Assembly: GCA_937967375.1 (NCBI GenBank)
Contig: CALCJF010000011.1
Coordinates: 6,160-70,159 of the forward strand
Direction of reading: 5' to 3'
Length of the DNA: 64,000 nucleotides
From: an uncultured Leucobacter sp.
Lineage (GTDB): Bacteria; Actinomycetota; Actinomycetes; Actinomycetales; Microbacteriaceae
Every line of letters starts with the position of its first letter. Within the stretch, counting starts at the first letter, position 1. The notes under the pieces are model-generated. The model was not told the DNA's origin. It saw only the letters and a program-made list of their open reading frames with translations, and searched no databases. A program made the position numbers and the translations under genes. Positions 20,184 through 36,488 of this stretch are shown piece by piece.

Positions 20184-22280
20184 TTGAGTTCAATCTTTAA
20201 GACCGTTGCATGGGAAGTGGATCAGCTTGTCGCTGGGGTAGAGAAGGGATCGATCAGTCTGCCCGATCTGCAGCGACCCTTCGTATGGCCAACAGCGAAG
20301 GTCCGCGATCTCTTCGATTCGATGTACAAAGGTTATCCGGTTGGTGAGCTCATGTTCTGGGACGTGAGCGAGGCCCATGCGACACGTTCGATCGCAGGAG
20401 AAGCGCAGATCGCGGCTACTCACCAAATAGTTGATGGGCAGCAGCGTCTCACGAGTCTGTTTGCTGCTATTAAAGGGCTCCCGGTGCGTGATGAGTCTTA
20501 CAAGTCGAAACAGATCACGATCTCTTTCAACCCATTTACAGAGAAGTTTGAGGTTCGCACACCAGCCATCGCCAGGTCAGCGAACTGGGTTGAAGACATT
20601 TCGACGGTCTTCAAATCAGCAATCGACGCCTTCGAAGATTTTGCTGAACGGTATGAGAACTCTGGAAATGAGCTTGAGAAGGAGCTTCGGCGCGATCTGC
20701 AACGAAAATTCCATCGCCTAGACAGCTTGGGGTCGTACCAATTTCAGGTCGTGCATATTCAGCAAGAGGTTCCGAAAAGGATCGTCGCTGACGTTTTTGT
20801 TCGCATCAACTCAGAGGGCGTCTCTCTAAAGGCATACGACTACATACTCACTTGGCTCAGCGTATTTTGGCCCGAGGGCAGAGACCGTATCGAAGAGTTT
20901 GCGAGACTTTCCAGAGTTACCCCCGAAAGAGCAACCGAAATTACGGGGCGAAAGGTCGACTGGACACCTAAGAATCCCTACTTGCCGGTGCAGACCGGTC
21001 AGATCATTCGAGCCATGGTCGCGGTGGGGCAGAACCGTGCGAAGCTCAGAGATGCCTACTCAGCACTTCAAGCGAAAGACCGTGTTACTGGAGCAGTCGA
21101 CCCTGACAAGCAGGAGCACGAGCTCGATCTGCTGAAGAGCGCACTGCCAATTGTGACTGACAAGCTCAGTTGGTCAGAGTTTATTCATGCGGTGCGTCTG
21201 GCAGGCTTTAGATCGAACCGTGGCATCACATCTGAAACAAATGTGATCTCGAGCTATGTCATGTTCTTGCTTGGGAGAAATCGATACAGCGTGCCACTGG
21301 CAGATCTTCGGGTGGTCATTGCACAGTGGGTCTTTATGTCACAGCTCACGAGTCGATACACCGGCTCGGGTGAGTCGCAGCTGCAGAAAGATCTCGACTC
21401 TTTTGATGCCGTAGCTGATGGTGACGCCTTGGGTTTTGTTGCTGTTCTACGCCGTGCGATGCAAACCGCGCTCACGAATGATTTTTGGGCTTTCAGCGTG
21501 CCTCAGTCGCTCGTGACGTCGGGGCCAAGTCTTTCGCCCACCTACCAGTGCTACTTGGCAGCATTGAACGTGCTCGACGCCGATATGTTCATGATCCCGA
21601 TGAAGGTGCGCGACTGGATGGATCCATCACAGCCTGCGGCCAAAGGTATGGAAGGCCACCACCTATTTCCGCGCGCTTACCAAGAAAAGGTGTTGAACAC
21701 TACCGATACGAAGCGCATCAATCAGGCAGCCAACTTTGCACCGACCGATTGGAAGACAAATCAGATAATTTCCGACCGGGCGCCTGCCGAGTACTGGTCC
21801 GAGATGCTTGCGAGGCAAGGCGGGGACCAGGCGTGGCTTGAGAAACAGCTTTACTGGCATGGGCTACCCGCCCACTGGCAAGAACTCGACTACGAGGAAT
21901 TTTTAGGAAAGCGTCGGGCGCTACTCGCAAAAGTCGTCCGAGACGGATTTTCTCAGATCGATAAGCACGCGGAAGACAACACAGGTCAATGGCTTGTCGA
22001 GGTCGTTGCGGATGATGAAATCTCACTCGATCAACTGCTTGCCCAGGGGTTGTTGATTCCCGGTGACTTGCTTGACTCGGCAGATCCTGAGACCGAGATA
22101 GACGCAGTTGTTACCGATGACGGCACAATTTTGATCGATGGGGAGCATGAATTTGATTCTCTCGATGAAGCGGCTCGCCACCTCGGGGTCACAAGTATGA
22201 GTGGGCAGGATTTCTGGGTGCTTGAGGTCGACGGTGGGTTTGCAGAGTTGAGCGAGCTGACTGTCGACCGAAGAAGTTAG
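20184..22280 (+). CDS. GmrSD-like type IV restriction protein (DUF262 + HNH/DUF1524-like) with C-terminal RAMA-like domain
   Basis: LPDLQRPFVW, IVDGQQRLTSL, VFVRINSEG (DUF262); EGHHLFP..INQAANF (HNH-like); C-terminal LDQLLAQGLLIPGD..VTDDGTI..FDSLDEAA..SGQDFW. Confidence 0.85.
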   Translation: MSSIFKTVAWEVDQLVAGVEKGSISLPDLQRPFVWPTAKVRDLFDSMYKGYPVGELMFWDVSEAHATRSIAGEAQIAATHQIVDGQQRLTSLFAAIKGLPVRDESYKSKQITISFNPFTEKFEVRTPAIARSANWVEDISTVFKSAIDAFEDFAERYENSGNELEKELRRDLQRKFHRLDSLGSYQFQVVHIQQEVPKRIVADVFVRINSEGVSLKAYDYILTWLSVFWPEGRDRIEEFARLSRVTPERATEITGRKVDWTPKNPYLPVQTGQIIRAMVAVGQNRAKLRDAYSALQAKDRVTGAVDPDKQEHELDLLKSALPIVTDKLSWSEFIHAVRLAGFRSNRGITSETNVISSYVMFLLGRNRYSVPLADLRVVIAQWVFMSQLTSRYTGSGESQLQKDLDSFDAVADGDALGFVAVLRRAMQTALTNDFWAFSVPQSLVTSGPSLSPTYQCYLAALNVLDADMFMIPMKVRDWMDPSQPAAKGMEGHHLFPRAYQEKVLNTTDTKRINQAANFAPTDWKTNQIISDRAPAEYWSEMLARQGGDQAWLEKQLYWHGLPAHWQELDYEEFLGKRRALLAKVVRDGFSQIDKHAEDNTGQWLVEVVADDEISLDQLLAQGLLIPGDLLDSADPETEIDAVVTDDGTILIDGEHEFDSLDEAARHLGVTSMSGQDFWVLEVDGGFAELSELTVDRRS

Positions 22281-22331: not shown

Positions 22332-24051
22332 TCACGTCGTCAGCACAACGCAGCGATACTTCGCCCGCGTGAGCCCGACGTAGAGCAGGTCTGAAAAGCT
22401 CAGCCCGTTCTCGGTGGCGAAGCTCTTCGCTTTGTTGCCGATGTCTGTCAACACCACTGCATCGGCGTCGAGGCCCTTGAATTTGAAGATCGACCGCCAT
22501 CGGATGCGCCCGCTTCCCGCCTCGCTCTCGAGTTGCTTGCGTAGCCAGCGCTCGCTGCGGGTGCGTTCGTTGCGAGCGAAGAAACGACCAACCAGTGAAT
22601 TGGTCGCGGCAAACGGGCTTAGCACGACGATCTGCTCGGGTGAGTACTCTTTCAGTAGCTCGCGCAGGGCAGTCGAAAGCGCGTCGGTCTCATCTTTACT
22701 TGCATCGCGCACAGCAAAACCGCCTGGCACGCCCTCTGGCATCCGGTGACCGGTGAATCCGAGCGGCTGTTGAGGCATGAGCGACTGGGCGCCGGCGGTG
22801 ATCGCGCGCACGTTACGGCAGTTGCGGGCGACGCGGACGTTTACGAGCCCGGGCAACCATATCTTTGCGATTTCAAATGGTCTGGTCTTCGAATCTCACC
22901 ATTATCTGCTGGCGAGCATCGCCCGCGATCAGCAGCGAGGTCTTCTGTAGCGAGGCTTTCGCGGAAAGCGCCTCGAAGATCTCGAGCATCACCGGATAGC
23001 CCGCGATGTCTTGAAACTCGTCGATGAGAATGGCGTCGTACTTGGTGCTCGCGGGCCTGCACTTCAGCCCATCAAGCGCGCGCCGCGGCAGTGTCTCTGT
23101 ATACCACGTATGCTCGGCACGGTCGGGGTTCGCGTCGAGTCCAGCGGCACCAAGCATCAGTCCGTTGAGGCTGAGCGCATCGACATTTGGCAGTTCGCCA
23201 ACTTGGGCTTCGAATTCACCCGCCATGAGCAAGTTCCAGCATGTGACGAGCGTGCGAAGTCCAGCGCGGTTGTTGCGGCGCGCGGCTTGCACGATCAGGT
23301 GGCTCTTGCCGGTACCTGCCGGGCCGTCGAGGTAGACGTGCGTGTTTCGTTCGACGAGTTCGAGTATGACTTCTTGTTCGGCGAGCACGGTAGCTTCGGC
23401 GACTTGGCGCTCACGCATACGATCGGAGACAGACTCGCTGACGTGAAAGTTGCCGAGCAGCGCGTGCTTAGTCTCTTCGACGCGTTCGCTTGTGAAGGCT
23501 TGAGGATCATGCTCAACTCCGTCGACCTTTGAATACCACGCATCGTATTCTTCGAAGAGGTGATCGAGCAGCCAAGTCGGTTTGGAGAGGTCGTCGTTCC
23601 ATCCGAGCTCCCACTCGAAGAGCTGCATATCACCGCGACTCGCGTTCTCGGACTGATGGCGACTGAGCGAGGTGAACCACACGAGGCGTGCGATCGGCTC
23701 GTTGCCAGTGAGCAAACCTAGTTCTTTGAGATAGCCGCGCAAGCTGCGGCGTACTCCATCGAGTTGTTGCAGAGGATCCTTCGTCGGATTCGGAACATTC
23801 TCGAGAAACCAGTCACCGTTCTCGTAGCGGGCCGAACTTGGCGACTTAGCCTCGATAATCGCGATGCCCTTACCAGGCGCGAGCACAACGAAGTCGGCTT
23901 CGCCCACAAAGGCAGCGTGGTGTCTCGTAACCTGCAGTGAGTGGATCACCACCCAGTCATCGCGATCTTGCATCCCCTCAAGTGCCGTGAACACCTTCTT
24001 CTCGGAGCCATTCGCGCCTTCGCGAGGGATCGGAGGAATCATTACCACCAT
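22332..24051 (-). pseudogene. NERD nuclease-SF1 helicase, split by a +1 frameshift near 22875-22900
   Basis: 5' ORF: GEADFVV..IIEAKS, GPAGTGKS, LIDEFQD, AGDARQQ then stop at 22873; the shifted frame continues DSKTRPFEIAKIWLPGL..NCRN..SIFKFKGLD..LYVGLTRAK; TATGCT-N6-ATG start. Confidence 0.8.
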
Positions 24052-24275
24052 GGGGTCAGCATATCGACAGGTGTCGCATAGTGTTGACAGCGTGAGCCGG
24101 CGCGCGGCCTTACAATCGCGCAGCAAGTTAACTCGTAGGTTCCGACGGTGAACACTTACCCCAAGAATTACCCCTTTCAGGGGCCGACGGCCGAGCCGAA
24201 TGTCGTGGGTCTCTAGTACGGTGATGGCAGGCACGGGCGAGAGGTATTTCGCCCAGGAATGAGAAGGAGGTCGAC

Positions 24276-25841
24276 ATGGTACCTGCTACCAAAGAATCGC
24301 AACGGGCTGAACTGCACAAGACGATCTGGCAGGTCGCAAACGACCTACGTGGCTCCGTAGATGGCTGGGACTTTAAGTCCTACGTACTCGGCATGCTGTT
24401 CTACCGATTCATTTCGGAAAACCTCGCAAATTACATCAATAAGGGTGAGCGTGAAGCGGGTGCTCCTGACTTTGACTTCGCGCACCTCTCAGACGAAGAC
24501 GCAGAATATGCGCGCGAAGAAATCGTTGCCGAAAAAGGTTTCTTCATCAAGCCCTCGGAACTCTTCGAGAACGTGCGCAAGAAAGCAGCGCGCAACGAGA
24601 ACCTCAACGAGACACTCGAATCAATCTTCCGAGACATCGAGGGATCCGCTGTCGGCACCGACAGCGAAGACGATCTCAAAGGTCTGTTCGACGACCTGAA
24701 CGTGAATAGCACGAAGCTCGGTAACACAGTTGCGAAACGTAACGAGAAGCTCGTGAAGCTGCTCGACGCGATCGGCGACCTGCCGCTCGGAAGCTTCGAG
24801 GACAACTCGATTGACCTCTTCGGTGACGCATACGAGTACCTGATGCAGATGTACGCGTCGAGTGCGGGTAAATCCGGTGGTGAGTACTACACGCCTCAGG
24901 AAGTATCTGAACTCCTCGCCTACATAACCACGATGGGCAAGGAGCGCGTAAACAAGGTGTACGACCCTGCTGCAGGGTCCGGATCACTGCTCTTGAAGTT
25001 CGCGAAAGTGCTCGGCAAAGAAAACGTGGGCGGCTTCTACGGCCAAGAAATCAACCTCACCACCTACAACCTTGCTCGCATAAACATGTTCCTCCACGAT
25101 GTGAACTACGAAAAGTTCGACATCGCTCTTGGAGACACACTTCTCGAACCTGCGCACTGGGATGAGGAGCCTTTCGAAGCAATCGTCTCGAACCCTCCCT
25201 ACTCCATCAAATGGGATGGCGATGCAAACCCGATCCTCATCAACGACCCGCGCTTTGCTCCAGCGGGTGTGCTTGCACCGAAGTCGAAAGCCGACCTCGC
25301 ATTCACGATGCATATGCTGCACTGGCTCGCCACCGACGGAACCGCAGCGATCGTTGAGTTCCCTGGAGTGTTGTATCGGGGCGGTGCCGAGCAGAAGATC
25401 CGCAAATACCTGATCGACAACAATTATGTTGAGGCCGTAATCCAACTGCCGCCGGATCTGTTCTTTGGCACCACGATCGGCACCTGCGTGATCGTGCTCA
25501 AGAAATCAAAGAAGACGAACGACGTGCTGTTCATTGACGCGTCGGCAGAGTTCGTGCGTGGCGGGAACAAGAACAAGCTCTCGCCAGATAACCTGCAGAA
25601 CATTCTTATGGCGCTCGAGAACCGAGAGCATCAGGATCACTTCGCGACCACAGTAGCGAACAGCGCGATCGCAGAGAACAACTTCAATATCGCTGTCTCT
25701 TCGTATGTCGAGGCAGAAGATACCCGCGAGGTGATCGACATCACCGAGCTGAATGCGCGGATCGAGCAGATCGTGGCGAGCCAGTCAGAGCTGCGGACAA
25801 TGATTGATGCGATCGTTGCTGACCTGGAGGATACGAAGTGA
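24276..25841 (+). CDS. hsdM: Type I restriction-modification m6A methyltransferase subunit
   Basis: AAGGAGG RBS; IWQVANDLRG, GEYYTP, VYDPAAGSGSLL, SNPPY. Confidence 0.97.
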   Translation: MVPATKESQRAELHKTIWQVANDLRGSVDGWDFKSYVLGMLFYRFISENLANYINKGEREAGAPDFDFAHLSDEDAEYAREEIVAEKGFFIKPSELFENVRKKAARNENLNETLESIFRDIEGSAVGTDSEDDLKGLFDDLNVNSTKLGNTVAKRNEKLVKLLDAIGDLPLGSFEDNSIDLFGDAYEYLMQMYASSAGKSGGEYYTPQEVSELLAYITTMGKERVNKVYDPAAGSGSLLLKFAKVLGKENVGGFYGQEINLTTYNLARINMFLHDVNYEKFDIALGDTLLEPAHWDEEPFEAIVSNPPYSIKWDGDANPILINDPRFAPAGVLAPKSKADLAFTMHMLHWLATDGTAAIVEFPGVLYRGGAEQKIRKYLIDNNYVEAVIQLPPDLFFGTTIGTCVIVLKKSKKTNDVLFIDASAEFVRGGNKNKLSPDNLQNILMALENREHQDHFATTVANSAIAENNFNIAVSSYVEAEDTREVIDITELNARIEQIVASQSELRTMIDAIVADLEDTK

Positions 25842-26941
25842 CCCGCATCGACGAGCTCATTGCGGAGCACTGTCCTTACGGCGTTGAATTCGTAAAAGTC
25901 GGTCGATTGGCGCAGGTAGGAACCGGGAGTAGCGACCGTAAGAATGCAGTTGAAGGGGGTGCATACCCGTTCTACGTTCGGTCAAAGGACGTTATGCGTA
26001 TCGGTTCATATGAATTCGATGAAGAGGCGATCCTCATCCCCGGAGAAGGGGGGATCGGCGAGATATTTCATTACGTCCAGGGGAAGTATGCACTTCACCA
26101 ACGTGCTTACCGAATTCATTTCACTGACGAACGTGTAAACACGCGCTTTGCCTACTTCTACTTCACTGCAAATTTCAAGAGATTTATTCTGCAGAAGGCT
26201 GTCAGCGCGACCGTCACGTCCATTCGGAAGCCAATGATTACAGACTTTCCGTTCCCGGTTCCGCCGCTTGAGGTGCAGCGTGCGATCGTTGAGGTGCTGG
26301 ATACGTTCAGTAAGCTGGAAGCGGAGCTGGAAGCGGAGCTGGAAGCGGAGCTGGAATCCCGCAAACAGCAATACGAGCACTACCGAGCAGAACTTGTGCA
26401 GTGCGAAGACGCACCTGTGTTTTCTGTGAGTGATGTTGTGACAGGCATCTCTTCAGGGCGAAATAAGTCTCGTGTCGTTGGAGGCAGATACCCTGTATAC
26501 GGATCGACGGGACAAATCGGAACTACGGATGAAACAGCCTACTCCGGCGACTCGCTACTTGTAGCCCGAGTTGGTGCGAATGCTGGGCGCGTGAACGCAG
26601 TCTCCGGAGAGTATGACGTCTCCGATAACACGTTGATAATCACGCCTGCTGAAGCGTGGGATATGAGGTTCGCGTTTCACCAACTGACTCGCATGAATCT
26701 AAACCAATACGCCGTAGGCGGTGGACAGCCACTGGTCACCGGCAAGCTCTTGAAAAGCCTGAAAGTACACGTTCCCGATCTCACAGAACAACGTCGCATC
26801 GCAGACATTCTTGATAATTTTGACGCGCTAGTGAACGACCTCAGCAGTGGTCTCCCTGCCGAGCTGGCTGCCCGTCGCCCGCAGTACGAGATCTACCGTG
26901 ACAAGCTCCTTTCCTTTGAGGTGCTGGAGGTTCGAGCATGA
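25838..26941 (+). CDS. hsdS: Type I R-M specificity subunit (IC-like)
   Basis: Two TRDs, PVPPLEVQRAIV, central (LEAE)n repeat, GLPAELAARRPQYEIYRDKLLSF; GTGA overlap. Confidence 0.95.
   Translation: MTRIDELIAEHCPYGVEFVKVGRLAQVGTGSSDRKNAVEGGAYPFYVRSKDVMRIGSYEFDEEAILIPGEGGIGEIFHYVQGKYALHQRAYRIHFTDERVNTRFAYFYFTANFKRFILQKAVSATVTSIRKPMITDFPFPVPPLEVQRAIVEVLDTFSKLEAELEAELEAELESRKQQYEHYRAELVQCEDAPVFSVSDVVTGISSGRNKSRVVGGRYPVYGSTGQIGTTDETAYSGDSLLVARVGANAGRVNAVSGEYDVSDNTLIITPAEAWDMRFAFHQLTRMNLNQYAVGGGQPLVTGKLLKSLKVHVPDLTEQRRIADILDNFDALVNDLSSGLPAELAARRPQYEIYRDKLLSFEVLEVRA
26314..26356 (+). repeat. 12-bp tandem repeat GCTGGAAGCGGA x3 + 7-bp partial in hsdS
   Basis: Units start at 26314, 26326, 26338; partial GCTGGAA at 26350. 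Confidence 0.95.
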
Positions 26942-29900
26942 CGGGCACACGTGTGAACTATGACCTGATCGCGTTTGGTGGGGAGTCGACCGTTGTCGTC
27001 GAGTACGAACTCGATCCTCGGGATCAGGCGAGTTATCAGTCGGAGTCGCAGCTCGAGAACGAGTTCATTCGTCAGCTCGAGTCGCAAGCCTATGAGCGCG
27101 TGTACATTACGAGCGAAACCGACCTCATCGCCAATTTGCGTGCCCAGCTCGAAGCTCTGAACGATTACCGGTTCTCGGATACTGAATGGGAGCGGTTCTT
27201 TACCGAACGCATCGCCTCAACCGGCGACGGGATTGTCGAGAAAACTGTCCGTATCCAAGAAGATCACGTGCAGTTGCTAACGCGTGATGATGGTTCGACG
27301 AAGAATATCACCCTTCTTGATAAGCGTGATATTCACAACAACCGGCTCCAGGTGATTAACCAGTACTCGGTTGACCGCGGTGAGGGTGACGCATCCTTCT
27401 CAAACCGATACGACGTCACTATCCTGGTGAACGGCCTCCCGATGGTGCATGTTGAATTGAAGCGGCGCGGGGTGCCGATCCGCGAGGCGTTCAACCAGAT
27501 CGACAGGTATCAGCGCGATAGCTTCTGGGCTGGCTCCGGCCTGTTCGAGTATGTGCAACTGTTTGTGATCTCGAACGGTACTCAGACGAAGTACTACTCG
27601 AATACCACCCGCCGTCAACACATCGCCGACCAGACCGGTTCACGTCGCACGAAGAAGACTTCGAACTCATTCGAGTTCACCTCCTGGTGGGCAGACGCAC
27701 GCAACAAGCCGATCCTTGACCTCACGGCGTTCTCGAAGACCTTCTTTGCGAAGCACACCCTGCTGAACATCCTCACTCGCTACTGCGTGCTCACGAGTGA
27801 CCGGTTGCTGTTGGTGATGCGGCCGTACCAGATCGTGGCGACCGAGAAAATCCTGCAGAAGATCGACATCTCCACGAACTACAAAACCCTCGGCGCCCGT
27901 GACGCGGGCGGATACGTCTGGCACACCACAGGCTCCGGCAAGACACTCACCTCGTTCAAGACTGCGCAGCTGGCCTCTCGTGTGGCGTCTGTGGACAAGG
28001 TGTTGTTCGTGGTCGACCGGAAAGACCTCGACTATCAGACGATGAAAGAGTACGACCGCTTCGAGAAGGGGTCTGCGAACTCGAATACGTCAACTGCGGT
28101 GTTGAAGCGTCAGTTGGAAGATCCGTCGAAGAAGATCATCATCACGACGATCCAAAAGCTCTCCAACTTCATCAGCGGCAACAAAGGCCACGACGTCTAT
28201 TCCGGGCATGTGGTGCTGATCTTTGATGAGTCTCACCGCTCCCAGTTCGGGGACATGCATTCCGCGATCACGAAAGCGTTCAAACGGTACAACCTGTTCG
28301 GGTTCACCGGTACCCCGATCTTTGCCGAGAACTCTGGCAGCGGTGGCAACCCGCAGCTGAAGACCACGGAGCAGGCGTTCGGCGACAAACTGCACACGTA
28401 CACGATCGTGGACGCGATCAATGACAAGAACGTGCTGCCGTTCCGCATCGACTACGTCAACACCATCAAGGTCGGCACCGCTGACGACAAGCAAGTGAGC
28501 GCGATCGACACCGAGAGTGCGCTCCTGGCCCCTGCACGTGTGTCTCAGGTGACGAACTATATTCTTGAGCACTTCGACCAGAAGACGAAACGGCAAGAAG
28601 GTTACGCGCTCGGAGAGCGGCGCGTGAAGGGCTTCAACTCGATTTTCGCCACCGCTTCCATTACTGCGGCGCGCACCTACTACCAAGAGTTCAAGAACCA
28701 GCAAGAGGCACTGCTGCCGGATCAGCGGCTCAAGGTCGCGACAATCTTTTCCTACGCTCCGAACCCTGACAGCGAGGACGGGCTGCTCGACGAGGAAGGC
28801 TTCGAGACTGACGCCCTCTCCGGCGATGCGCGCAGCTTCCTGGAGACCGCGATCTCGGATTACAACCGCATGTTTGGAACGAGCTTCGATACGAGTTCAG
28901 ATAGCTTCCAGAATTACTACAAGGATCTGTCGCAGAAGCTCAAGACGCGAGAGATCGATCTTGTCATCGTGGTGAACATGTTCCTCACCGGCTTCGATGC
29001 GACCACTCTCAATACGCTGTGGGTGGATAAGAACCTCCGCAGCCACGGCCTGATTCAGGCGTACTCGCGTACGAATCGCATACTGAACTCGGTGAAGACC
29101 TACGGCAACATCGTGAACTTCCGCGATCTTGAAGCAGCCACGAACGACGCGATCGCTCTCTTCGGCAATAAGGATGCCGCGGGCATTGTGCTTTTGAAGC
29201 CATACCGTGAGTACTTTGACAGCTACGCCGAGAAGGTCACGCTGCTCATGCAGCAGTACCTGCCGGGGGCGTTGATCGTGGGTGAAGAAGCTCAGGTCGA
29301 GTTCGTGAAGCTCTACGGTGAGATCCTTAAGCTTCGCAACATCCTCACCTCGTTTGATGATTTCGAGAACGACGAGATCCTCTCTGCCAGGGACATGCAG
29401 GACTACCAGTCCACCTACCTCGATCTCTGGAACGAACGCAAGCGTGCGACTCAGAGCGAGAAAGAAAGCATCATCGAGGATGTGGTATTTGAGATAGAGC
29501 TGATCAAACAGGTAGAGATCAACGTCGACTACATCCTGCTCCTCGTGCAGAAATACCGCGAAGAACGCGGTGACGGCGACGACAAAGAACTGCGAGCAGG
29601 CATTAGCCGTGCGATCGACTCGAGCCCGTCACTGCGAAACAAGAAGGATCTCATCGAGACCTTCGTCGATTCTGTATCGGTGAAGGGCGAAATCGAGGCC
29701 GAATGGCGTGCCTACGTTGCGGCGCAGCGCGAGAAGGAATTGGCGGAGATCATCGGCTCTGAGAATCTCAAACCGGAGGAGACTGCACGGTTCGTAGAAG
29801 CGGCGTTCCGCGACGGCGCACTCCGCACCACAGGTACCGCGATCACGAAGGTCCTCCCGCCAGTTTCACGCTTCTCGAAGGACAAGAACCACAGCGCGAA

Positions 29901-29976
29901 GAAGCAACGCGTGATTCAGTTGCTCGGGGAATTCTTTGAACGCTTTTTCGGGCTGAGCACCGGGAATGACGATTAA
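26938..29976 (+). CDS. hsdR: Type I restriction endonuclease subunit R
   Basis: YDVTILVNGLPMVHVELK, HTTGSGKT, DESHR, GFTGTP, MFLTGFD, IQAYSRTNR; ATGA overlap. Confidence 0.97.
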   Translation: MTGTRVNYDLIAFGGESTVVVEYELDPRDQASYQSESQLENEFIRQLESQAYERVYITSETDLIANLRAQLEALNDYRFSDTEWERFFTERIASTGDGIVEKTVRIQEDHVQLLTRDDGSTKNITLLDKRDIHNNRLQVINQYSVDRGEGDASFSNRYDVTILVNGLPMVHVELKRRGVPIREAFNQIDRYQRDSFWAGSGLFEYVQLFVISNGTQTKYYSNTTRRQHIADQTGSRRTKKTSNSFEFTSWWADARNKPILDLTAFSKTFFAKHTLLNILTRYCVLTSDRLLLVMRPYQIVATEKILQKIDISTNYKTLGARDAGGYVWHTTGSGKTLTSFKTAQLASRVASVDKVLFVVDRKDLDYQTMKEYDRFEKGSANSNTSTAVLKRQLEDPSKKIIITTIQKLSNFISGNKGHDVYSGHVVLIFDESHRSQFGDMHSAITKAFKRYNLFGFTGTPIFAENSGSGGNPQLKTTEQAFGDKLHTYTIVDAINDKNVLPFRIDYVNTIKVGTADDKQVSAIDTESALLAPARVSQVTNYILEHFDQKTKRQEGYALGERRVKGFNSIFATASITAARTYYQEFKNQQEALLPDQRLKVATIFSYAPNPDSEDGLLDEEGFETDALSGDARSFLETAISDYNRMFGTSFDTSSDSFQNYYKDLSQKLKTREIDLVIVVNMFLTGFDATTLNTLWVDKNLRSHGLIQAYSRTNRILNSVKTYGNIVNFRDLEAATNDAIALFGNKDAAGIVLLKPYREYFDSYAEKVTLLMQQYLPGALIVGEEAQVEFVKLYGEILKLRNILTSFDDFENDEILSARDMQDYQSTYLDLWNERKRATQSEKESIIEDVVFEIELIKQVEINVDYILLLVQKYREERGDGDDKELRAGISRAIDSSPSLRNKKDLIETFVDSVSVKGEIEAEWRAYVAAQREKELAEIIGSENLKPEETARFVEAAFRDGALRTTGTAITKVLPPVSRFSKDKNHSAKKQRVIQLLGEFFERFFGLSTGNDD

Positions 29977-30025
29977 TGGATTACAACCTTAACTATTCGC
30001 AAGTCCAATTCAGGGGAGAAGGGGC

Positions 30026-31261
30026 ATGACTGAGCTCTACACCCGTGGCTACCTGAGCGACTACACACATAATCGTGTGCGACAGGTAATCTCCGACCTT
30101 GAACGCATCGGAGAAGAAGAGGTCTTGCGTCGCTCCACTGATGACTTGGTTTCCGAGCTTGTTGCTCGCGCATGCCTTGAGCCGCTTGTTGTTGGCGATG
30201 AGCCGATTGACGGCGGTGTGCAGGAAAGGTCTGTGGAAATGCAGGACCCCTTTTACGGGCGCCCGGTCCGCCGCCTGGTTTTTGACATACACGCAGTGTA
30301 TGAATTTTTCGGGACATCCGATTTGCTCCACTACAAGCCTTCAACCAGCCTCGCTTTCGTCAGGATTGAAGCTGACGTAGATGCTCGAAATCATACTTTG
30401 ACTGTTCGCACAAGGGTAGATGCGAGTGGTCAGATGAACGCAGCCGCAGCTCGCAAAGCCCTCGAAGAAGAGATTGGTCGAGTGCGAACGAACGCGAATC
30501 ATGCTGTTCGTGACGTGACCTCATATAACGCGAGTCTAGACAGGCAGATCCGGCCAGCAGTTGAACGACGAAAAGTTCAACTTCAGAATCGTCGAGATAT
30601 GGCAGGTGCACTTGGCTTTCCGCTGAAAAAGCGAAGTGATGCGCCAATCCCTGTTCCAGTAGTTCGAAAGCAAATTGGTGCAGCTCGAACTTCTTCTCCA
30701 CCGAGTCGTGCTCCATATAAAGATGAACCTGCGCTTACAGAAGCTCAATACGAAGATGCCATAAGTGTGGTCAGATCGACAATCTTGGCGATGGAGCGCA
30801 CCCCATCAGTAGTTGCAGGCAAAGACGAAGAAGCTATTCGAGATCAAATCCTTGTGCAGCTGAATGGAACCTTTGAAGGTAACGCCACCGGTGAGACCTT
30901 CGTCAAGAACGGCAAAACTGATCTATTAGTACGAGTCGAGGATCGCCATGTTTTCGTTGGCGAATGCAAATGGTGGAAGGGCGAGAAAGCATTCGGCGAG
31001 GCTATCGATCAGCTCTTGGGATACCTGCCGTGGCGTGACGAAAAGGCCGCACTTATCGTATTCATTAAGCAGAAGGATGCGTCGGCTGTCATTGAGAAAG
31101 CTGATAAAGCGATTCGTGCGCACACCGCATTCAAACGGGCAGGAAAGGCCTCCACGGATCCGCACCTCCGCCGCAACTATGCTCTTGGGCACCCCGAAGA
31201 CCCAGAACGCGAGTTAAAGGTAGCTGCGCTTTTCGCGGTATTCACGGGCGTCAAGGAGTAA
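30026..31261 (+). CDS. Unassigned protein with C-terminal PD-(D/E)xK-type nuclease motif
   Basis: GGAG RBS region; EEAIRD..GETF..GKTDLLVR..VFVGECKWW..AIDQLLGY. Confidence 0.75.
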   Translation: MTELYTRGYLSDYTHNRVRQVISDLERIGEEEVLRRSTDDLVSELVARACLEPLVVGDEPIDGGVQERSVEMQDPFYGRPVRRLVFDIHAVYEFFGTSDLLHYKPSTSLAFVRIEADVDARNHTLTVRTRVDASGQMNAAAARKALEEEIGRVRTNANHAVRDVTSYNASLDRQIRPAVERRKVQLQNRRDMAGALGFPLKKRSDAPIPVPVVRKQIGAARTSSPPSRAPYKDEPALTEAQYEDAISVVRSTILAMERTPSVVAGKDEEAIRDQILVQLNGTFEGNATGETFVKNGKTDLLVRVEDRHVFVGECKWWKGEKAFGEAIDQLLGYLPWRDEKAALIVFIKQKDASAVIEKADKAIRAHTAFKRAGKASTDPHLRRNYALGHPEDPERELKVAALFAVFTGVKE

Positions 31262-31269
31262 GGCACAGG

Positions 31270-33213
31270 ATGCAAATCACCAAACTGCGGCTCTCAGGCT
31301 TTCAATCATTTGGGCCGGCGCCGACAACAATCGAGCTAACGAATCTTTCCTATGTTCTTGGGCCTAACGGCGCTGGAAAGACCGCAGTATTGGAAGCGCT
31401 GTCCCGGCTCTTTAGCCCGCTCCCAGCTCAGCGCAAAGTTCATTTGAGTGATTTCCATGTGCCCAATTCACAAAGTGCGACGGAAGCTCACGCCAGCAGC
31501 CCCGAGCTGTGGATTGAAGCACTCATTGAAGTGCCCGAGGCTGGTGATGAAGGGCAGAACCCGAGCGTTCCTGCGAACTTCGCGCACATGCGTATCGACA
31601 CTGAGGATGGGATTCCCAGTATTCGGGTTCGGCTGACAGCTGTCCTCGCACCAGACGGTGTAATTGACGAAAAGATTCAGTACGTCCTTGAAGCCGATGA
31701 ATTCGGCGAACCTACGTCCACTTCAGACATGTCACGTTTTGACCGGGCAAGCATCGAAGTGCACTATCTTCCTGCCCGGAGAGACCCTGCTGATCACATC
31801 TCATTTACAACTTCATCATTAATTGGACGAACGCTCCGGGCCGCAGATTGGACCGACGAGAGAGAAACTCTTGGCAATCTCTCGCAGCAGGTGACGGATT
31901 CCTTGACTGATAATGACGCGGTTAAGGGGCTGGGCGTTCAACTTACAAAGCAATGGAGCGGTCTCCATAGCGGTGAGTTCTTCAAGAACCCGACGATTGC
32001 GTTTGGCCGAGGAGATTTAGAAGGAGTACTGCGTCAACTTACTGTCTCATTCACACCATCACACGATGGTTCACCTGCACCATTTGAAAGGCTCTCTGAT
32101 GGGCAGAAATCACTGCTCTACATTTCAATGGTGCTTTCTTGGCAGGCGTTGTCTCGACGCGTCCTAAGTGGCGAGGAGACTGCATTCGATGTGCATCGCA
32201 TGAGGCCACCTGTCCATACCGTGATTGCACTTGAGGAGCCAGAGAACAGCCTTTCCCCGCAGTACCTAGGTCGCATTGTGCGACAGCTTCGCGAAGCGGC
32301 GAAGAACAACGATATTCAGGCGGTCATTGCCACTCATTCGCCTTCACTGCTTCGACGTGTGGATCCGGAGCACGTTTGTTTCCTGCGGCTTGATTCAGAA
32401 CGACAGTCTCAAGTTCGCCGTATCGTTCTGCCGCCCGATGGGTCAGACGCCGCGAAGTATGTGCGAGAGGCAGTACTCGCATATCCAGAGCTCTATTTCT
32501 CGCGGCTTGTTGTTCTTGGTGAGGGCGACAGCGAGCAGATTGTCCTTCCCCGGATCCTTGCCGCAGCAGGAGTAGCGGAAGATGACGCGTCCGTGTCCGT
32601 TGTTCCGCTGGGCGGTCGCCATGTCAATCACTTCTGGCGTCTCCTAGAGGAGCTCGAGATCCCATACGTGACTCTTCTCGATCTTGACGAGGGGCGACAT
32701 CAGGGTGGCTGGGGACGAGTTCGAAACGCTCTTCGGCAAATCAACAAGCTCATCCCTGATAGGTACCCAGAATCACAAATCTCGAACTTGCCCAAATGGA
32801 ATGATGACCGCGACTTCCCGAGCCTTGAAGATCCGGCCTGGGAACCACCGACGGTCGGCCCTATTCCAGGTCTTGAGCGCCAACACGTCTACTTCTCTCA
32901 TCCGATTGATCTGGACATGATGATGATGAAGGCTTTCCCTGAGGCCTACGGAGTGTCTGAGACTGGCGCTCCTGATGCGTCGGGTATTGAAGCAGTACTT
33001 GGAAAGAATCATGCAAATGAGAATCGCCTCGATGATGACGTGCTCGCGCTTTTTGATAATTACCATAAGAAGTTCAACCTTGGAAGCAAGCCTGTTGAGC
33101 ATACTGAAGCATTGTCTCAGCTTGATGACTTTGACCTAGACATTTGCATTCCAGGGGTATTGAGTCGGCTTGTGTCCGATGTAAAGGCCCAGCTTGAGGC
33201 GCTCTCAGAGTGA
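31270..33213 (+). CDS. gajA: OLD-family ATP-dependent nuclease (ABC ATPase + TOPRIM), GajA-like
   Basis: GPNGAGKT, LSDGQKS, LEEPENSL, ATHSP; TOPRIM LGEGDSE and LLDLDEG. Confidence 0.85.
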   Translation: MQITKLRLSGFQSFGPAPTTIELTNLSYVLGPNGAGKTAVLEALSRLFSPLPAQRKVHLSDFHVPNSQSATEAHASSPELWIEALIEVPEAGDEGQNPSVPANFAHMRIDTEDGIPSIRVRLTAVLAPDGVIDEKIQYVLEADEFGEPTSTSDMSRFDRASIEVHYLPARRDPADHISFTTSSLIGRTLRAADWTDERETLGNLSQQVTDSLTDNDAVKGLGVQLTKQWSGLHSGEFFKNPTIAFGRGDLEGVLRQLTVSFTPSHDGSPAPFERLSDGQKSLLYISMVLSWQALSRRVLSGEETAFDVHRMRPPVHTVIALEEPENSLSPQYLGRIVRQLREAAKNNDIQAVIATHSPSLLRRVDPEHVCFLRLDSERQSQVRRIVLPPDGSDAAKYVREAVLAYPELYFSRLVVLGEGDSEQIVLPRILAAAGVAEDDASVSVVPLGGRHVNHFWRLLEELEIPYVTLLDLDEGRHQGGWGRVRNALRQINKLIPDRYPESQISNLPKWNDDRDFPSLEDPAWEPPTVGPIPGLERQHVYFSHPIDLDMMMMKAFPEAYGVSETGAPDASGIEAVLGKNHANENRLDDDVLALFDNYHKKFNLGSKPVEHTEALSQLDDFDLDICIPGVLSRLVSDVKAQLEALSE

Positions 33214-34880
33214 TCAGAGTAGATGAATGGGCACCCGTTGGAGGTGTGCGGTTAGAGCCAAACGCGCTCGAAGCAGTTCGTGAGTTAGAGAAAAATGTTG
33301 TTATAACTGCAGGCCCTGGTGCGGGTAAAACCGAACTTCTTGCGCAGCGTGCTGACTACCTGTTCCGAACCGGTGCTTCAATGTACCCGCGACGAATCCT
33401 CGCGATATCTTTCAAGGTTGATGCCGCGAGAAATCTTCAGTCGCGAGTCCGCGAACGATCTGGATCGCTGTTTGCCGCTCGATTCGACAGTTTCACTTTC
33501 CATGCGTTTGCAAAGCGCTTGGTAGATAACTACCGTCCAGCATTGACAGGAGCGAGCGCACTCCTGCCTGACTACCGCTTACATGCAACAGATCGGGTTC
33601 TGGGAGAACAGATCAGGTTTGAAGACCTGGTGCCATTGGCGTTGGAAATACTTGAAGCTAACCCATTTGCACGCGGCGCTCTCCGGCAAACCTACAGCCA
33701 TATCTTTATGGACGAGTTCCAAGATGCAACCGGCCCACAGTATGAATTCTTGAGACAGGCTTTCGAGGACACCAACGCAATTCTGACTGGCGTGGGTGAC
33801 ACCAAACAGCGCATCATGGTGTTTGCGGGGGCGCTAGAAGGAATCATGGGCTCTTTTGCCTCGGATTTTGATGCGCGTGAGCTTAACCTTTATCAAAACT
33901 TCCGTTCCAAGCCGCGGCTTCGTCGGATGCAGAACCGCATGATTCTCGATATGGAACCTTCCGCCGCTAGTTCGGATTCAGACCTCGCAGGTGATGAGGG
34001 CAGCATCCAAGTGCTCCGATACCCAACTGATCGGGCTGAAGCTAAGGGGGTAGCGAATCTTATTGAGCAATGGCTCGGCGAAGGGGTGCCTCCTAGCGAA
34101 ATCACGGTACTTGTGAGGCAAACTCCACACCTTGTGGCGGTGGACCTTGGATATGAACTATCTGAGCGCGGCATTCCTTTTCGGAATGAGCAGTCGGCTC
34201 AGGACCTCACCGCAGAACCTGCGACATCTCTCCTCTTCAATTATCTGCGTGTGATCGCAGATGAGCAGCGTCCAAGCGCCTACGGAGAGCTCGTTCGAGT
34301 TGTCACCCGAGGAGGTCTCGAAGAATCTGACAGTGTGACGGATAGCAAATTGAGGAGGCTGCTTACCGAAGACCGTTCAGCTATTCGGTCCCAAGATTTT
34401 GATCGCGCCAATCTTGACTCGTGGATTCCCTTGGTTACAAAGTTCCTAAAATTTGTGTCAAGACCTGCATTGAAGGCACTGTCTCCTTCATACCAGCAAG
34501 GAAGTCGACTCGATGATGTAATCGACCAAGGGCTCGATGCTTTCCGGCGAGAACTTGAGGTTGACGCTGATCCAGTAGCTGCGCTAAACCGCCTCTCGGA
34601 AGAAGACGCAATTCGTATACTAACGGTGCACAAGTGTAAAGGCCTTGAGTTTGAGAAAGTTGTCATACTCGGTGTCGAGAGACAGCTATTTTGGGGTGAC
34701 GAAGCAGAGAAGAAAGCTGAATTCTTCGTGTCGATCTCTCGCGCCAAACAAGAACTAGTTCTGACTACTGCTGCCCGACGAAGCCGCCCGGCGGGGGTAA
34801 CTGGGCGATGGGATGAAGTGCGTACCCCGCACGAGGTTCTTCTTGCATATGCAGAAGAAGGAATGACCCAGGCAAGATGA
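33210..34880 (+). CDS. gajB: UvrD/REP-like helicase, GajB-like
   Basis: AGPGAGKT, MDEFQD, VGDTKQRI, QNFRS, TVHKCKGLEF, SISRAK; GTGA overlap with OLD gene. Confidence 0.85.
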   Translation: MIRVDEWAPVGGVRLEPNALEAVRELEKNVVITAGPGAGKTELLAQRADYLFRTGASMYPRRILAISFKVDAARNLQSRVRERSGSLFAARFDSFTFHAFAKRLVDNYRPALTGASALLPDYRLHATDRVLGEQIRFEDLVPLALEILEANPFARGALRQTYSHIFMDEFQDATGPQYEFLRQAFEDTNAILTGVGDTKQRIMVFAGALEGIMGSFASDFDARELNLYQNFRSKPRLRRMQNRMILDMEPSAASSDSDLAGDEGSIQVLRYPTDRAEAKGVANLIEQWLGEGVPPSEITVLVRQTPHLVAVDLGYELSERGIPFRNEQSAQDLTAEPATSLLFNYLRVIADEQRPSAYGELVRVVTRGGLEESDSVTDSKLRRLLTEDRSAIRSQDFDRANLDSWIPLVTKFLKFVSRPALKALSPSYQQGSRLDDVIDQGLDAFRRELEVDADPVAALNRLSEEDAIRILTVHKCKGLEFEKVVILGVERQLFWGDEAEKKAEFFVSISRAKQELVLTTAARRSRPAGVTGRWDEVRTPHEVLLAYAEEGMTQAR

Positions 34881-34949
34881 CCTAATATGCCTGTAGGTCC
34901 TACTCAGTCTGTTGTGTTTTTGCTTGTCACTACCAAGTAGTGGCCATAC

Positions 34950-35416
34950 TTAGGCCCGGCTGCCGTGTGCATCTCGACAGATATCCTCACTGTGCCGCCC
35001 AGAATAACCGCCGAGATACTTCCTTACCGTCTTGTGATTCCGCCCCACTCGCCTGGCGATGGCTTTAAAGCCAAGACCCCTGTGCGTAGCTCCTGCCACC
35101 GGTAGATCTCGTCATCGGTCGGCACTGCGACTCGTGAGCGGACTCCGGCCCCGACGAGGTGTTTCATAATGGTGTCGCGATCGTGGCCACCCTTATCGGC
35201 AAGCCCGTAGGCTGACTGTCCAGCCTCGTGGTCCGCGATTGTTTCAGCAAGTCGCTCAGGAATGATACGCGGGAAAGACGGTGGAGATTGTTGCAAATCC
35301 ACGCCTCTTGGCGACACGGGTACTTCCCGCAGGAGTCGCCACCCCTGTTGCAATTGTTCTGCATAGGAGGAGAACACCCCGACCTTTGCTTCCCTACTAG
35401 AACCCCGAACAACCAA
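34950..35416 (-). pseudogene. Degraded tandem helix-turn-helix protein
   Basis: ORF 35024..35416 has an HTH-like segment (HEAGQSAYGLADKGGHDRDTIMKHL); shifting frame at the C4 run 35077-80 gives GLGFKAIARRVGRNHKTVRKYL, stop at 34950. Confidence 0.6.
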
Positions 35417-35522
35417 GGTCGCAAAGACGACTCGAAGGATTAGGCGATATGGACAGCAGTAACGTCAATCTCTCAATCCCATAACCTCCGTTGACGTTGC
35501 GATATACACCTGCGGCCTGAGG

Positions 35523-36488
35523 TCATGGCCGGAAAAGCTGCAAACGCAGTGTTTCCTGCGATATGTTCGCCCGCGCCCGAACCTCCCACAACTCAGACGC
35601 CGCGCCGGTTCGATAGATCGCTGGCTGCGCCAAGTACGCTGAAAGAATCCGCGATCGTCCCGCCGCAAAGTCTGCATCAGACGCGTGCGCATACTCCTCG
35701 CGCACAGCGGCCGCATATTCCGCGTAGCGCGACGGCGACGAAGCGAAGATCGAGAGATCGGCATCGAGCAGGTGCGCAAGCGGGGGAGCAGTATCACCAA
35801 CGTCGACCCCCGGTGTGGTCGCGACAATGAGATCGCCAATCCGCTGGGTGAGGCCGGGGTCCAGGTCGAGCGCGCCCAGCGAAGCGACCGCGAGGCCCGC
35901 CGAGTCGCGCTCGTCCGCACCGTCAGCGGCGCCGAGATAGATCGCGTCGTGAAACCATGCCGCCAGCAGCGTCTCGACCTCGATGTGCTCACCGCGCACC
36001 TCGAGGTGGTTCAGTGCGAGCAGCACATCTTCGAGGTGCCGCTCGTCGTGGTAGCGGCGGTGATCCTCGTTCCATCTCGCGATAAGCGAGTCGCCGAGAT
36101 CGTGCCAGGCGTCGAAATCAGAAGCAACGGAAGAACCCGAGGCGCGAGAAGCGACCCCAACCGCATCACCCAACAGCGCCCACTCCGCCACAAGATACTG
36201 CCGCCGCCGAACGGGTCGCGCAGCATCGCGCTCGACCCCGCGCACCCGCAGCCCGGCCGCGCGCAGCGAAAACACCACGTCTTTCGCGGTCACCTCGCGC
36301 GCACCGAGCGCAACCGCGCGAGCGTGCAGCGACGCGGGAACGTCGTAGTGATCGAGATCGAAGCCGCGCCTGGGCGCGCCCAGCCGCGCGGCGAAGGCGT
36401 GCAGCTCGTCATAGTCGCTGTCAGACACGAGGTGGCTCCACAGCGTGCCGTGCGCAGGCCACGCGGGCGGATCAATCAGAATCGCCAT
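35523..36488 (-). CDS. DUF4031 domain fused to HD-superfamily phosphohydrolase
   Basis: MAILIDPPAWPAHG..WSHLVSD..DHYD; RRYHD..AWFHDAIY..LLDADLSI; TACGCT-N6-ATG. Confidence 0.88.
   Translation of the reverse strand: MAILIDPPAWPAHGTLWSHLVSDSDYDELHAFAARLGAPRRGFDLDHYDVPASLHARAVALGAREVTAKDVVFSLRAAGLRVRGVERDAARPVRRRQYLVAEWALLGDAVGVASRASGSSVASDFDAWHDLGDSLIARWNEDHRRYHDERHLEDVLLALNHLEVRGEHIEVETLLAAWFHDAIYLGAADGADERDSAGLAVASLGALDLDPGLTQRIGDLIVATTPGVDVGDTAPPLAHLLDADLSIFASSPSRYAEYAAAVREEYAHASDADFAAGRSRILSAYLAQPAIYRTGAASELWEVRARANISQETLRLQLFRP

Follow-up and report, generated by a model that had tools for sequence, protein, structure and literature searches.

The question raised by this locus is whether a gene encoding 411 amino acids (aa), placed between a type I restriction-modification (R-M) operon and a Gabija gene pair, is a third component of Gabija or a defence module in its own right. 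The locus lies in a stretch of 64,000 nucleotides (nt) from an uncultured Leucobacter sp. (GenBank assembly GCA_937967375.1, contig CALCJF010000011.1, positions 6,160 to 70,159), referred to here at its full length as the window. An original prediction described positions 30026-34880 as a tight three-gene unit, in which the 411-aa gene ends 8 nt before a gene for an OLD-family nuclease that in turn overlaps, by the letters GTGA, a gene for a UvrD-type helicase, and these coordinates are borne out. The unit was taken for a candidate undescribed three-gene defence system, either as a Gabija variant with an added effector or sensor or as a stand-alone nuclease gene inserted between hsdR and gajA. 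The present analysis favours the stand-alone gene and not the Gabija variant. The best explanation, held at a probability of about 0.68, is that independent defence modules have been stacked in a low-GC island and that the 411-aa gene, a member of the PDC-S54 family, has been inherited together with gajA and gajB as a block. Between the type I R-M system and an ordinary Gabija, PDC-S54 most likely constitutes a separate module and not a third Gabija gene.

The 411-aa protein matches the PADLOC profile PDLC05036 (PDC-S54) with an E value of 1e-117 and a score of 392 bits, residues 3-403 aligning with profile positions 6-403 of 410, and PDC-S54 is the sole PADLOC match in 52 of 52 diverse homologues, all of which have its architecture of ~410 aa. 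By profile comparison the gene is a member of PDC-S54, a catalogued single-gene phage-defence candidate. The label "undescribed" fails because the protein already carries the name of such a candidate, and what had been ranked as the best novelty candidate of the window turns out to be a known PADLOC family beside a textbook Gabija. PDC stands for "phage defence candidate", and the family belongs to a group of 145 candidates, some of one gene and others of several, that were predicted by way of genes found inside BREX, DISARM and type I R-M systems and were added to PADLOC as predictions (Payne, Hughes, Fineran & Jackson, bioRxiv, 10.1101/2024.01.29.577857). A literature search for the name 'PDC-S54' returned no paper mentioning the family, and no published domain description was found. 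The protein has no family in Pfam or NCBIfam; matches to RAG1 (E 0.14), NapA (E 0.001, well short of its cutoff), TIMP-2 and designed helical bundles stand at chance level and were rejected. The gene is real, since at least 339 homologues occur in the protein collection, every one labelled hypothetical, and at least 577 loci in species-representative genomes across many bacterial phyla and archaea. Members are also carried on 22 plasmid records, haloarchaeal and Spiroplasma ones among them, in two phage records and in 15 IMG/VR contigs. Within the group to which the window belongs the family is rare, being present in 6 of 400 other sampled Actinomycetota genomes.

The full-length AlphaFold2 (AF2) model of the protein, with a predicted local distance difference test score (pLDDT) of 83, consists of four parts (Table 1). 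For the first of these, the N-terminal domain of about 135 aa, neither Pfam, NCBIfam and PDB sequences nor Foldseek gave any match. Next comes a single long helix (residues 139-195), whose sole PDB profile matches are designed helical bundles, and then a linker (residues 196-238). An N-terminal part matching nothing recognisable, a helical stretch and a Pro-rich linker had all been anticipated by the original prediction. The linker is disordered, yet its sequence (LGFP.K.R.DAP...P.VRK...PY.PEP) is kept across phyla, and its residues L196, P211 and E234 are nearly invariant.

The C-terminal domain carries the E..(GKT)D..ECK spacing, earlier recognised as typical of restriction endonucleases, and the spacing holds up across the family. 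The 52 homologues are about 30-35% identical overall, and E290, G296, T298, D299, E313, C314 and K315 are invariant among them, together with Q329 and Y333. Judged by this conservation, the D299...E313-C-K315...Q329xxxY333 motif is far beyond chance. Modelled by itself, the domain reaches a pLDDT of 88 and a predicted template modelling score (pTM) of 0.85, and its core at residues 268-347 runs a-b-b-b-a-b (helix 268-282, a short strand, strands 300-304 and 307-316, helix 320-333 and strand 340-347). D299 stands just ahead of the second core strand (300-304) and E313-C-K315 lies inside the third (307-316). The PD-(D/E)xK superfamily is built on a classical core with the catalytic D...(D/E)xK residues on the beta2-beta3 hairpin, and the same placement is seen in the PDC-S54 model. 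The QxxxY motif is a feature of EcoR124I HsdR and of RecB-family nucleases. Proteins of this HsdR/RecB type resemble PDC-S54 in motif order and spacing, D-x13-E-x-K followed by QxxxY 11-13 residues on, but overall the two are not significantly similar in sequence or fold, and PDC-S54 has no motor domain and a different N-terminal region.

Database comparisons of the domain gave faint signals of the same kind. Aligned by hhalign with the N-terminal nuclease domains of HsdR from the window and related loci, D...ExK...QxxxY falls motif on motif, at an E value of 0.027 and a probability of 1.8%. Foldseek returned nothing at E <= 1e-3 for the full and C-domain models against PDB or for the full model against BFVD. 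Among the top 25 PDB matches of the C-domain are OkrAI, EcoO109I, YaeQ, McrC and EcoT38I at E 0.13-0.5, all weak, and the BFVD match of best probability is an Mrr-domain protein (probability 0.94, E 0.06). Sub-threshold Pfam matches were obtained to pPIWI_RE_REase in 5 of the 52 members and to HSDR_N in 3. The restriction-endonuclease fold put forward at the outset is thus upheld by its motif and modelled topology and not by a significant fold or profile match. A PD-(D/E)xK-type nuclease is the supported assignment for the modelled domain, accepted on motif, topology and conservation.

Downstream of PDC-S54, profile comparison identifies 31270-34880 as an ordinary, complete two-gene Gabija. 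The PADLOC GajA match extends across residues 1-647, with Pfam AAA_21, AAA_15 and OLD-like_TOPRIM domains, and GajB contains the UvrD-helicase and UvrD_C domains. Canonical Gabija has two genes with a stop/start overlap, as do gajA and gajB of the window, and PDC-S54 falls outside this definition (Doron et al. 2018; Cheng et al. 2021, 2023; Li et al. 2024, cited in PMC13069673). The nicking endonuclease of the system is GajA, a TOPRIM enzyme that senses nucleotides, and its partner in a joint complex acting on DNA is the UvrD-type helicase GajB (PMC13069673). The published 'type II Gabija' has a gajC, whose MazF-like product substitutes for GajA (PMC13069673). GajC was considered as a known third gene to which the 411-aa protein might correspond and was rejected, the two being unrelated.

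If PDC-S54 belonged to Gabija as a rule, the two would be expected to travel together, and in the wider family they do not. Neighbourhoods reaching up to 10 kb into the flanks were compared at 80 genome loci of 30-66% identity (individual loci are cited as L001 and so on), which are the best-scoring of at least 577 and not a random sample. Searches by tblastn with the window proteins found relatives of its GajA and GajB within 10 kb at 0 of the 80 loci, although GajA subtypes far from the two queries could escape such a search outside the immediate neighbours. No Gabija was found at six further Actinomycetota loci, nor at the 15 IMG/VR loci. Across about 100 loci of the wider family, spanning 25-66% identity and many phyla, one has an adjoining Gabija pair (L050), and no partner gene is conserved. 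The original prediction had asked how often homologues neighbour OLD and UvrD genes; in the wider family there is no conserved link to them, L050 being the single independent adjacency. Besides the window, adjoining Gabija was seen in four close lineages and at L050, of roughly 110 loci examined, which falls short of co-occurrence as a third gene across the family.

The neighbours themselves are varied. Genes directly beside PDC-S54 differ in size and strand among the 80 loci, and when 1056 neighbouring open reading frames (ORFs) were clustered the largest families appeared in at most 6 of the 80, the top two being HsdM-like and HsdR-like. A PADLOC scan of 136 immediate neighbours returned scattered type I R-M subunits, other PDC families, HmaA, HerA and one GajA, to which a Pfam scan of the same 136 added Abi_C, mixed with integrases and housekeeping genes. 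PDC-S54 is a single-gene system without an obligatory partner, because its neighbours are heterogeneous at the 80 loci and because stand-alone copies occur within the clade of the window gene itself.

As a module of this kind, PDC-S54 would act by itself. Its architecture suggests an oligomeric DNase that would be held autoinhibited in uninfected cells. The N-terminal alpha/beta domain may sense infection or a foreign-DNA cue, and helix 139-195 could join the subunits as an oligomerisation coiled coil. The conserved flexible linker would tether, and perhaps mask, the C-terminal nuclease, and upon release this PD-(D/E)xK domain, with its HsdR/RecB-like D-x13-ExK-x13-QxxxY arrangement, would cut DNA. 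The type I R-M, PDC-S54 and Gabija layers may share a common transcript; they are co-oriented and, to judge from spacing alone, may be packed closely enough for co-transcription.

Several points weigh against the reading of stacked independent modules. Four other lineages of one narrow actinobacterial clade, at 73-95% identity, keep the order PDC-S54-GajA-GajB, their genes being spaced by -4 to +8 nt. In L081 the PDC-S54 protein is 95% identical and no R-M system lies upstream. In Arthrobacter woluwensis (L082/83, 74%) the trio follows hsdMSR, every junction being a 4-nt overlap, in L084 (about 74-75%) it follows hsdM-hsdS-Ymh-hsdR, and in L085/86 (73%) it follows an Eco57I-like methyltransferase (type II) and an XhoI-like endonuclease. 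The trio proteins also diverge in step, the identities of PDC-S54/GajA/GajB to those of the window being 95/95/95, 74/76/72, 75/74/71 and 73/74/70%. At L050 (2334-6490), in a deltaproteobacterial metagenome-assembled genome, a gene for a PDC-S54 protein 31% identical to that of the window lies 112 nt ahead of a gajA whose product is of another subtype (PDLC00102, E 4e-189); this gajA is overlapped by a short UvrD-like gene (387 aa), with type I R-M-like genes further downstream. Recurrence of the trio, in-step divergence and the L050 adjacency are as compatible with a functional link as with block inheritance. As to what the protein does, the nuclease fold and profile matches are non-significant (Foldseek best E 0.04-0.13, the hhalign probability of 1.8%, weak Pfam matches), the sensor, oligomer and autoinhibition steps come from architecture only, and the role of PDC-S54 in defence is that of a predicted candidate.

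A functional link would be provided by a lineage-specific three-component Gabija, in which the PDC-S54 of this clade would have been recruited as effector or sensor to work with the GajA/GajB complex, or in obligate synergy with it. In this Micrococcales-type clade, PDC-S54 could then be a second nuclease acting on the nicks or ends that GajA/GajB produce, or an arming sensor, within a tripartite system. Such a system would account for an order and tight coupling that are kept in the window, L081, L082/83, L084 and L085/86 despite differing upstream genes, for pairwise identities that track one another, for a gajA ribosome-binding site that sits within the PDC-S54 gene and for the independent succession of PDC-S54, GajA and a UvrD-like gene at L050. 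If it existed, the deltaproteobacterial adjacency would hint at a recurrent functional affinity between PDC-S54 and Gabija. Both the three-component Gabija and the division of labour proposed for it are unlikely, however. The GajA and GajB of the window are full-length to the two-gene models, with no missing domain left for a partner to supply, and about 100 other family loci lack Gabija. Co-divergence as a block is expected for any linked genes, and one chance adjacency per about 100 loci is, by a rough estimate that was not computed, about what defence islands would give.

A further objection comes from the clade itself, where the parts of the trio are found apart. Intact PDC-S54 genes without Gabija, at 68-72% identity, occur at L087/88 (by SIR2 and Wadjet-like genes), L089, L098 and L099; those of L089 and L098 lie in conjugative elements next to TrwC and that of L099 next to IS110. 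In the tree, these Gabija-free genes nest within the 100/100-supported clade of all trio members, as sisters of genes that do adjoin Gabija. The reverse case is seen at L095/96, where a Gabija pair has PDC-S54 nowhere within 5.5 kb; its GajA, 72% identical to that of the window, is not separated in the tree from those of the trio. Another three Gabija pairs of the same subtype and order (39-49% identity) are also without PDC-S54. The PDC-S54 and Gabija modules are separable at equal divergence. The three proteins of the trio diverge in step, and therefore the trio is a conserved cassette that has moved between contexts. Its clade-limited inheritance as a block is the pattern of a mobile defence-island cassette and no evidence for a three-protein machine.

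The surroundings of the cassette are of the same character. At L084 and L085 a string on one strand comprises R-M, PDC-S54, Gabija and Uzume, with UzuA (Uzume, E 2e-90) directly after GajB at L084:12913-13725 and L085:12949-13761. Both loci, in which Uzume extends the co-oriented string, are stacks of independent systems. Close spacing is not peculiar to the junction of PDC-S54 with gajA, since hsdR and PDC-S54 share 4 nt in L082 and 1 nt in L084. A conserved fourth gene after GajB was considered and rejected: the position is taken by UzuA in L084 and L085 and by an unrelated 242-aa ORF in L082, and no such gene is present in the window.

The hsdR gene upstream raises another possibility, that PDC-S54 is tied to type I R-M, either as a back-up or guard nuclease released upon R-M inhibition, by analogy with PrrC, or as an accessory working on DNA ends made by HsdR. 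PrrC is an anticodon nuclease, an ABC-ATPase/HEPN-like RNase almost confined to type I R-M. Like PDC-S54, it is a single effector gene within or beside type I R-M operons, whereas PDC-S54 has a predicted DNA-nuclease-type fold and most of its copies lie away from type I R-M. PrrC is cited as the classic embedded system in the study that discovered the PDC-S54 family through embedding in BREX, DISARM or type I R-M (10.1101/2024.01.29.577857). The original prediction had also asked how often homologues neighbour type I R-M, and it is the most frequent neighbour, present in 10 of the 80 loci within 10 kb (tblastn), and it contributes the two largest neighbour clusters mentioned above. PDC-S54 immediately follows hsdR in the window, L082, L084 and L107, comes one gene after it in L001 and L003, and stands directly before it in L063 and further downstream of it on a Thauera plasmid, and the nuclease motifs of the two proteins align. 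A dependence on type I R-M is nevertheless quite unlikely. About 85% of loci have no type I R-M nearby; the member at L085 follows a type II system, those of L089 and L098 are part of conjugative elements, and others are carried on phage-like contigs. The similarity to HsdR, moreover, is limited to short catalytic motifs, with an hhalign probability of 1.8%.

A last alternative takes PDC-S54 out of defence altogether, as a nuclease serving mobile elements, in competition between plasmids or integrative and conjugative elements or in addiction, or serving DNA repair, and carried as such in variable regions. Its occurrence in conjugative elements next to the TrwC relaxase and type IV secretion system genes is compatible with this, as is its presence on the 22 plasmids, 2 phage records and 15 IMG/VR contigs; integrases make up 3 of the 136 immediate neighbours. 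Mobile elements, however, commonly carry defence systems too, and the neighbours that recur are type I R-M, Gabija, other PDC families, HmaA, HerA, Abi_C, SIR2 and Wadjet-like genes. Patchy rarity (6 of 400 other Actinomycetota genomes) and residence in a low-GC island are likewise typical of defence genes, and a role outside defence is very unlikely.

Some members of the family, or of its nuclease domain, occur in other arrangements. On the E. coli IncHI2 plasmid NZ_ON960341.1 (L110:3440-7865), a 344-aa hypothetical protein has the nuclease core alone in common with the 411-aa protein (35% identity over query residues 254-366) and is followed by a 1020-aa DEAD/DEAH helicase, the same nuclease domain in another architecture. 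A PDC-S54 gene directly after hsdR appears to be split by an insert of about 1.5 kb (L107:1576-2385 and L109:1501-1728; genome G485, contig 15, 28491-31228), which may be an insertion sequence or another embedded gene; the L107 hsdR product is 54% identical to that of the window. At L001:9282-10001, a gene for a YgjP-like metallopeptidase (Pfam E 3.5e-60) lies between hsdR and PDC-S54 and overlaps the PDC-S54 start, and an ORF in the same place at L003:9258-10004 is presumed, from size and position, to be its equivalent. Upstream of a 64%-identical PDC-S54, L101:1864-6536 contains a RE_endonuc-domain ORF, a 932-aa SMC-like protein and a DUF2130 protein, co-oriented and overlapping, and this string may be another uncharacterised system.

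In the window, the modules described occupy a stretch at about 20-36 kb with 53-58% G+C, compared with 63-68% in the flanks (Table 1). HsdM, HsdS and HsdR form a one-operon type I R-M arrangement, hsdS sharing 4-nt overlaps with both hsdM and hsdR. From the end of hsdR to the PDC-S54 gene there are 49 nt, and GGAGAAGG stands upstream of the PDC-S54 ATG. Eight nt (ggcacagg) separate the TAA stop of the PDC-S54 gene at 31259-31261 from the gajA ATG at 31270, and the GTGA shared by gajA and gajB occupies 33210-33213.

Table 1. Features of the type I R-M, PDC-S54 and Gabija region, in window coordinates.
Feature	Position	Strand	Basis
hsdM, type I R-M methyltransferase, 521 aa	24276-25841	+	PADLOC MTase_I, E 5e-134
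hsdS, type I specificity subunit, 367 aa	25838-26941	+	PADLOC Specificity_I, E 4e-109
hsdR, type I restriction subunit, 1012 aa	26938-29976	+	PADLOC REase_I, 1182 bits
PDC-S54 family gene, 411 aa, ATG start	30026-31261	+	PADLOC PDLC05036, E 1e-117
N-terminal alpha/beta domain, residues 1-135	30026-30430	+	AF2 pLDDT mostly >90; three helices and four strands
57-residue helix, residues 139-195	30440-30610	+	DSSP H139-195 on AF2 model
Disordered linker, residues 196-238, Pro/Arg-rich	30611-30739	+	pLDDT <50 at residues 206-233
C-terminal PD-(D/E)xK-type nuclease domain (predicted), residues 239-405	30740-31240	+	Motif and AF2 model
Catalytic candidate D299	30920-30922	+	Conservation
Catalytic candidate E313	30962-30964	+	Conservation
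Catalytic candidate K315	30968-30970	+	Conservation
Catalytic candidate QxxxY, Q329-Y333	31010-31024	+	Conservation
Putative ribosome-binding site of gajA, AAGGAG	31253-31258	+	Read from sequence; within 3' end of PDC-S54 gene
gajA, OLD-family ABC ATPase and TOPRIM nuclease, 647 aa, ATG start	31270-33213	+	PADLOC GajA, E 5e-241
gajB, UvrD-family helicase, 556 aa, GTG start	33210-34880	+	PADLOC GajB, E 5e-189

Other features of the island stand apart from these modules. Its left end holds a 698-aa GmrSD_N protein (E 5e-30; 20184-22280, + strand) with a weak C-terminal RAMA match (E 1e-5, below cutoff). Next to it, on the - strand at 22332-24234, a NERD and UvrD-like helicase is divided into a 453-aa ORF with the Pfam domains NERD and AAA_19 and a 174-aa ORF with UvrD_C_2 and AAA_12, the division being a frameshift or a split gene. 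Between the two target-recognition domains of hsdS, a 12-nt in-frame tandem repeat occupies 26313-26356, in the form of three 20-nt copies that overlap, each offset by 12 nt from the last. Downstream of gajB there is no + strand gene at 34881-35520; on the - strand, neither Pfam nor PADLOC gave a match for a 130-aa ORF (35024-35416). Small - strand ORFs of helix-turn-helix type occur at a similar position after gajB in related loci, and L082 has a serine recombinase further on. A promoter scan of 24000-35600 gave 1 promoter-like site against 6 expected, with terminator-like sites at chance level. The island flanks show no convincing att-like direct repeats, and there is no tRNA gene within the window.

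What this locus adds to present knowledge is modest: a clade-restricted cassette with PDC-S54 upstream of Gabija, and a domain map, the protein itself showing no differences from PDC-S54. Its main value is that of a correction, and the recurrent placement of PDC-S54 beside type I R-M is documented along with it. PDC-S54 is widespread, in Bacteria, Archaea, plasmids and a few phage contigs, and experimentally uncharacterised; a first domain map and the catalytic signature D299, E313, K315 and QxxxY are given for it here. In a single clade, the presence of PDC-S54 both with and without Gabija constitutes a natural experiment, one that suits the testing of cooperation between neighbouring defence modules.

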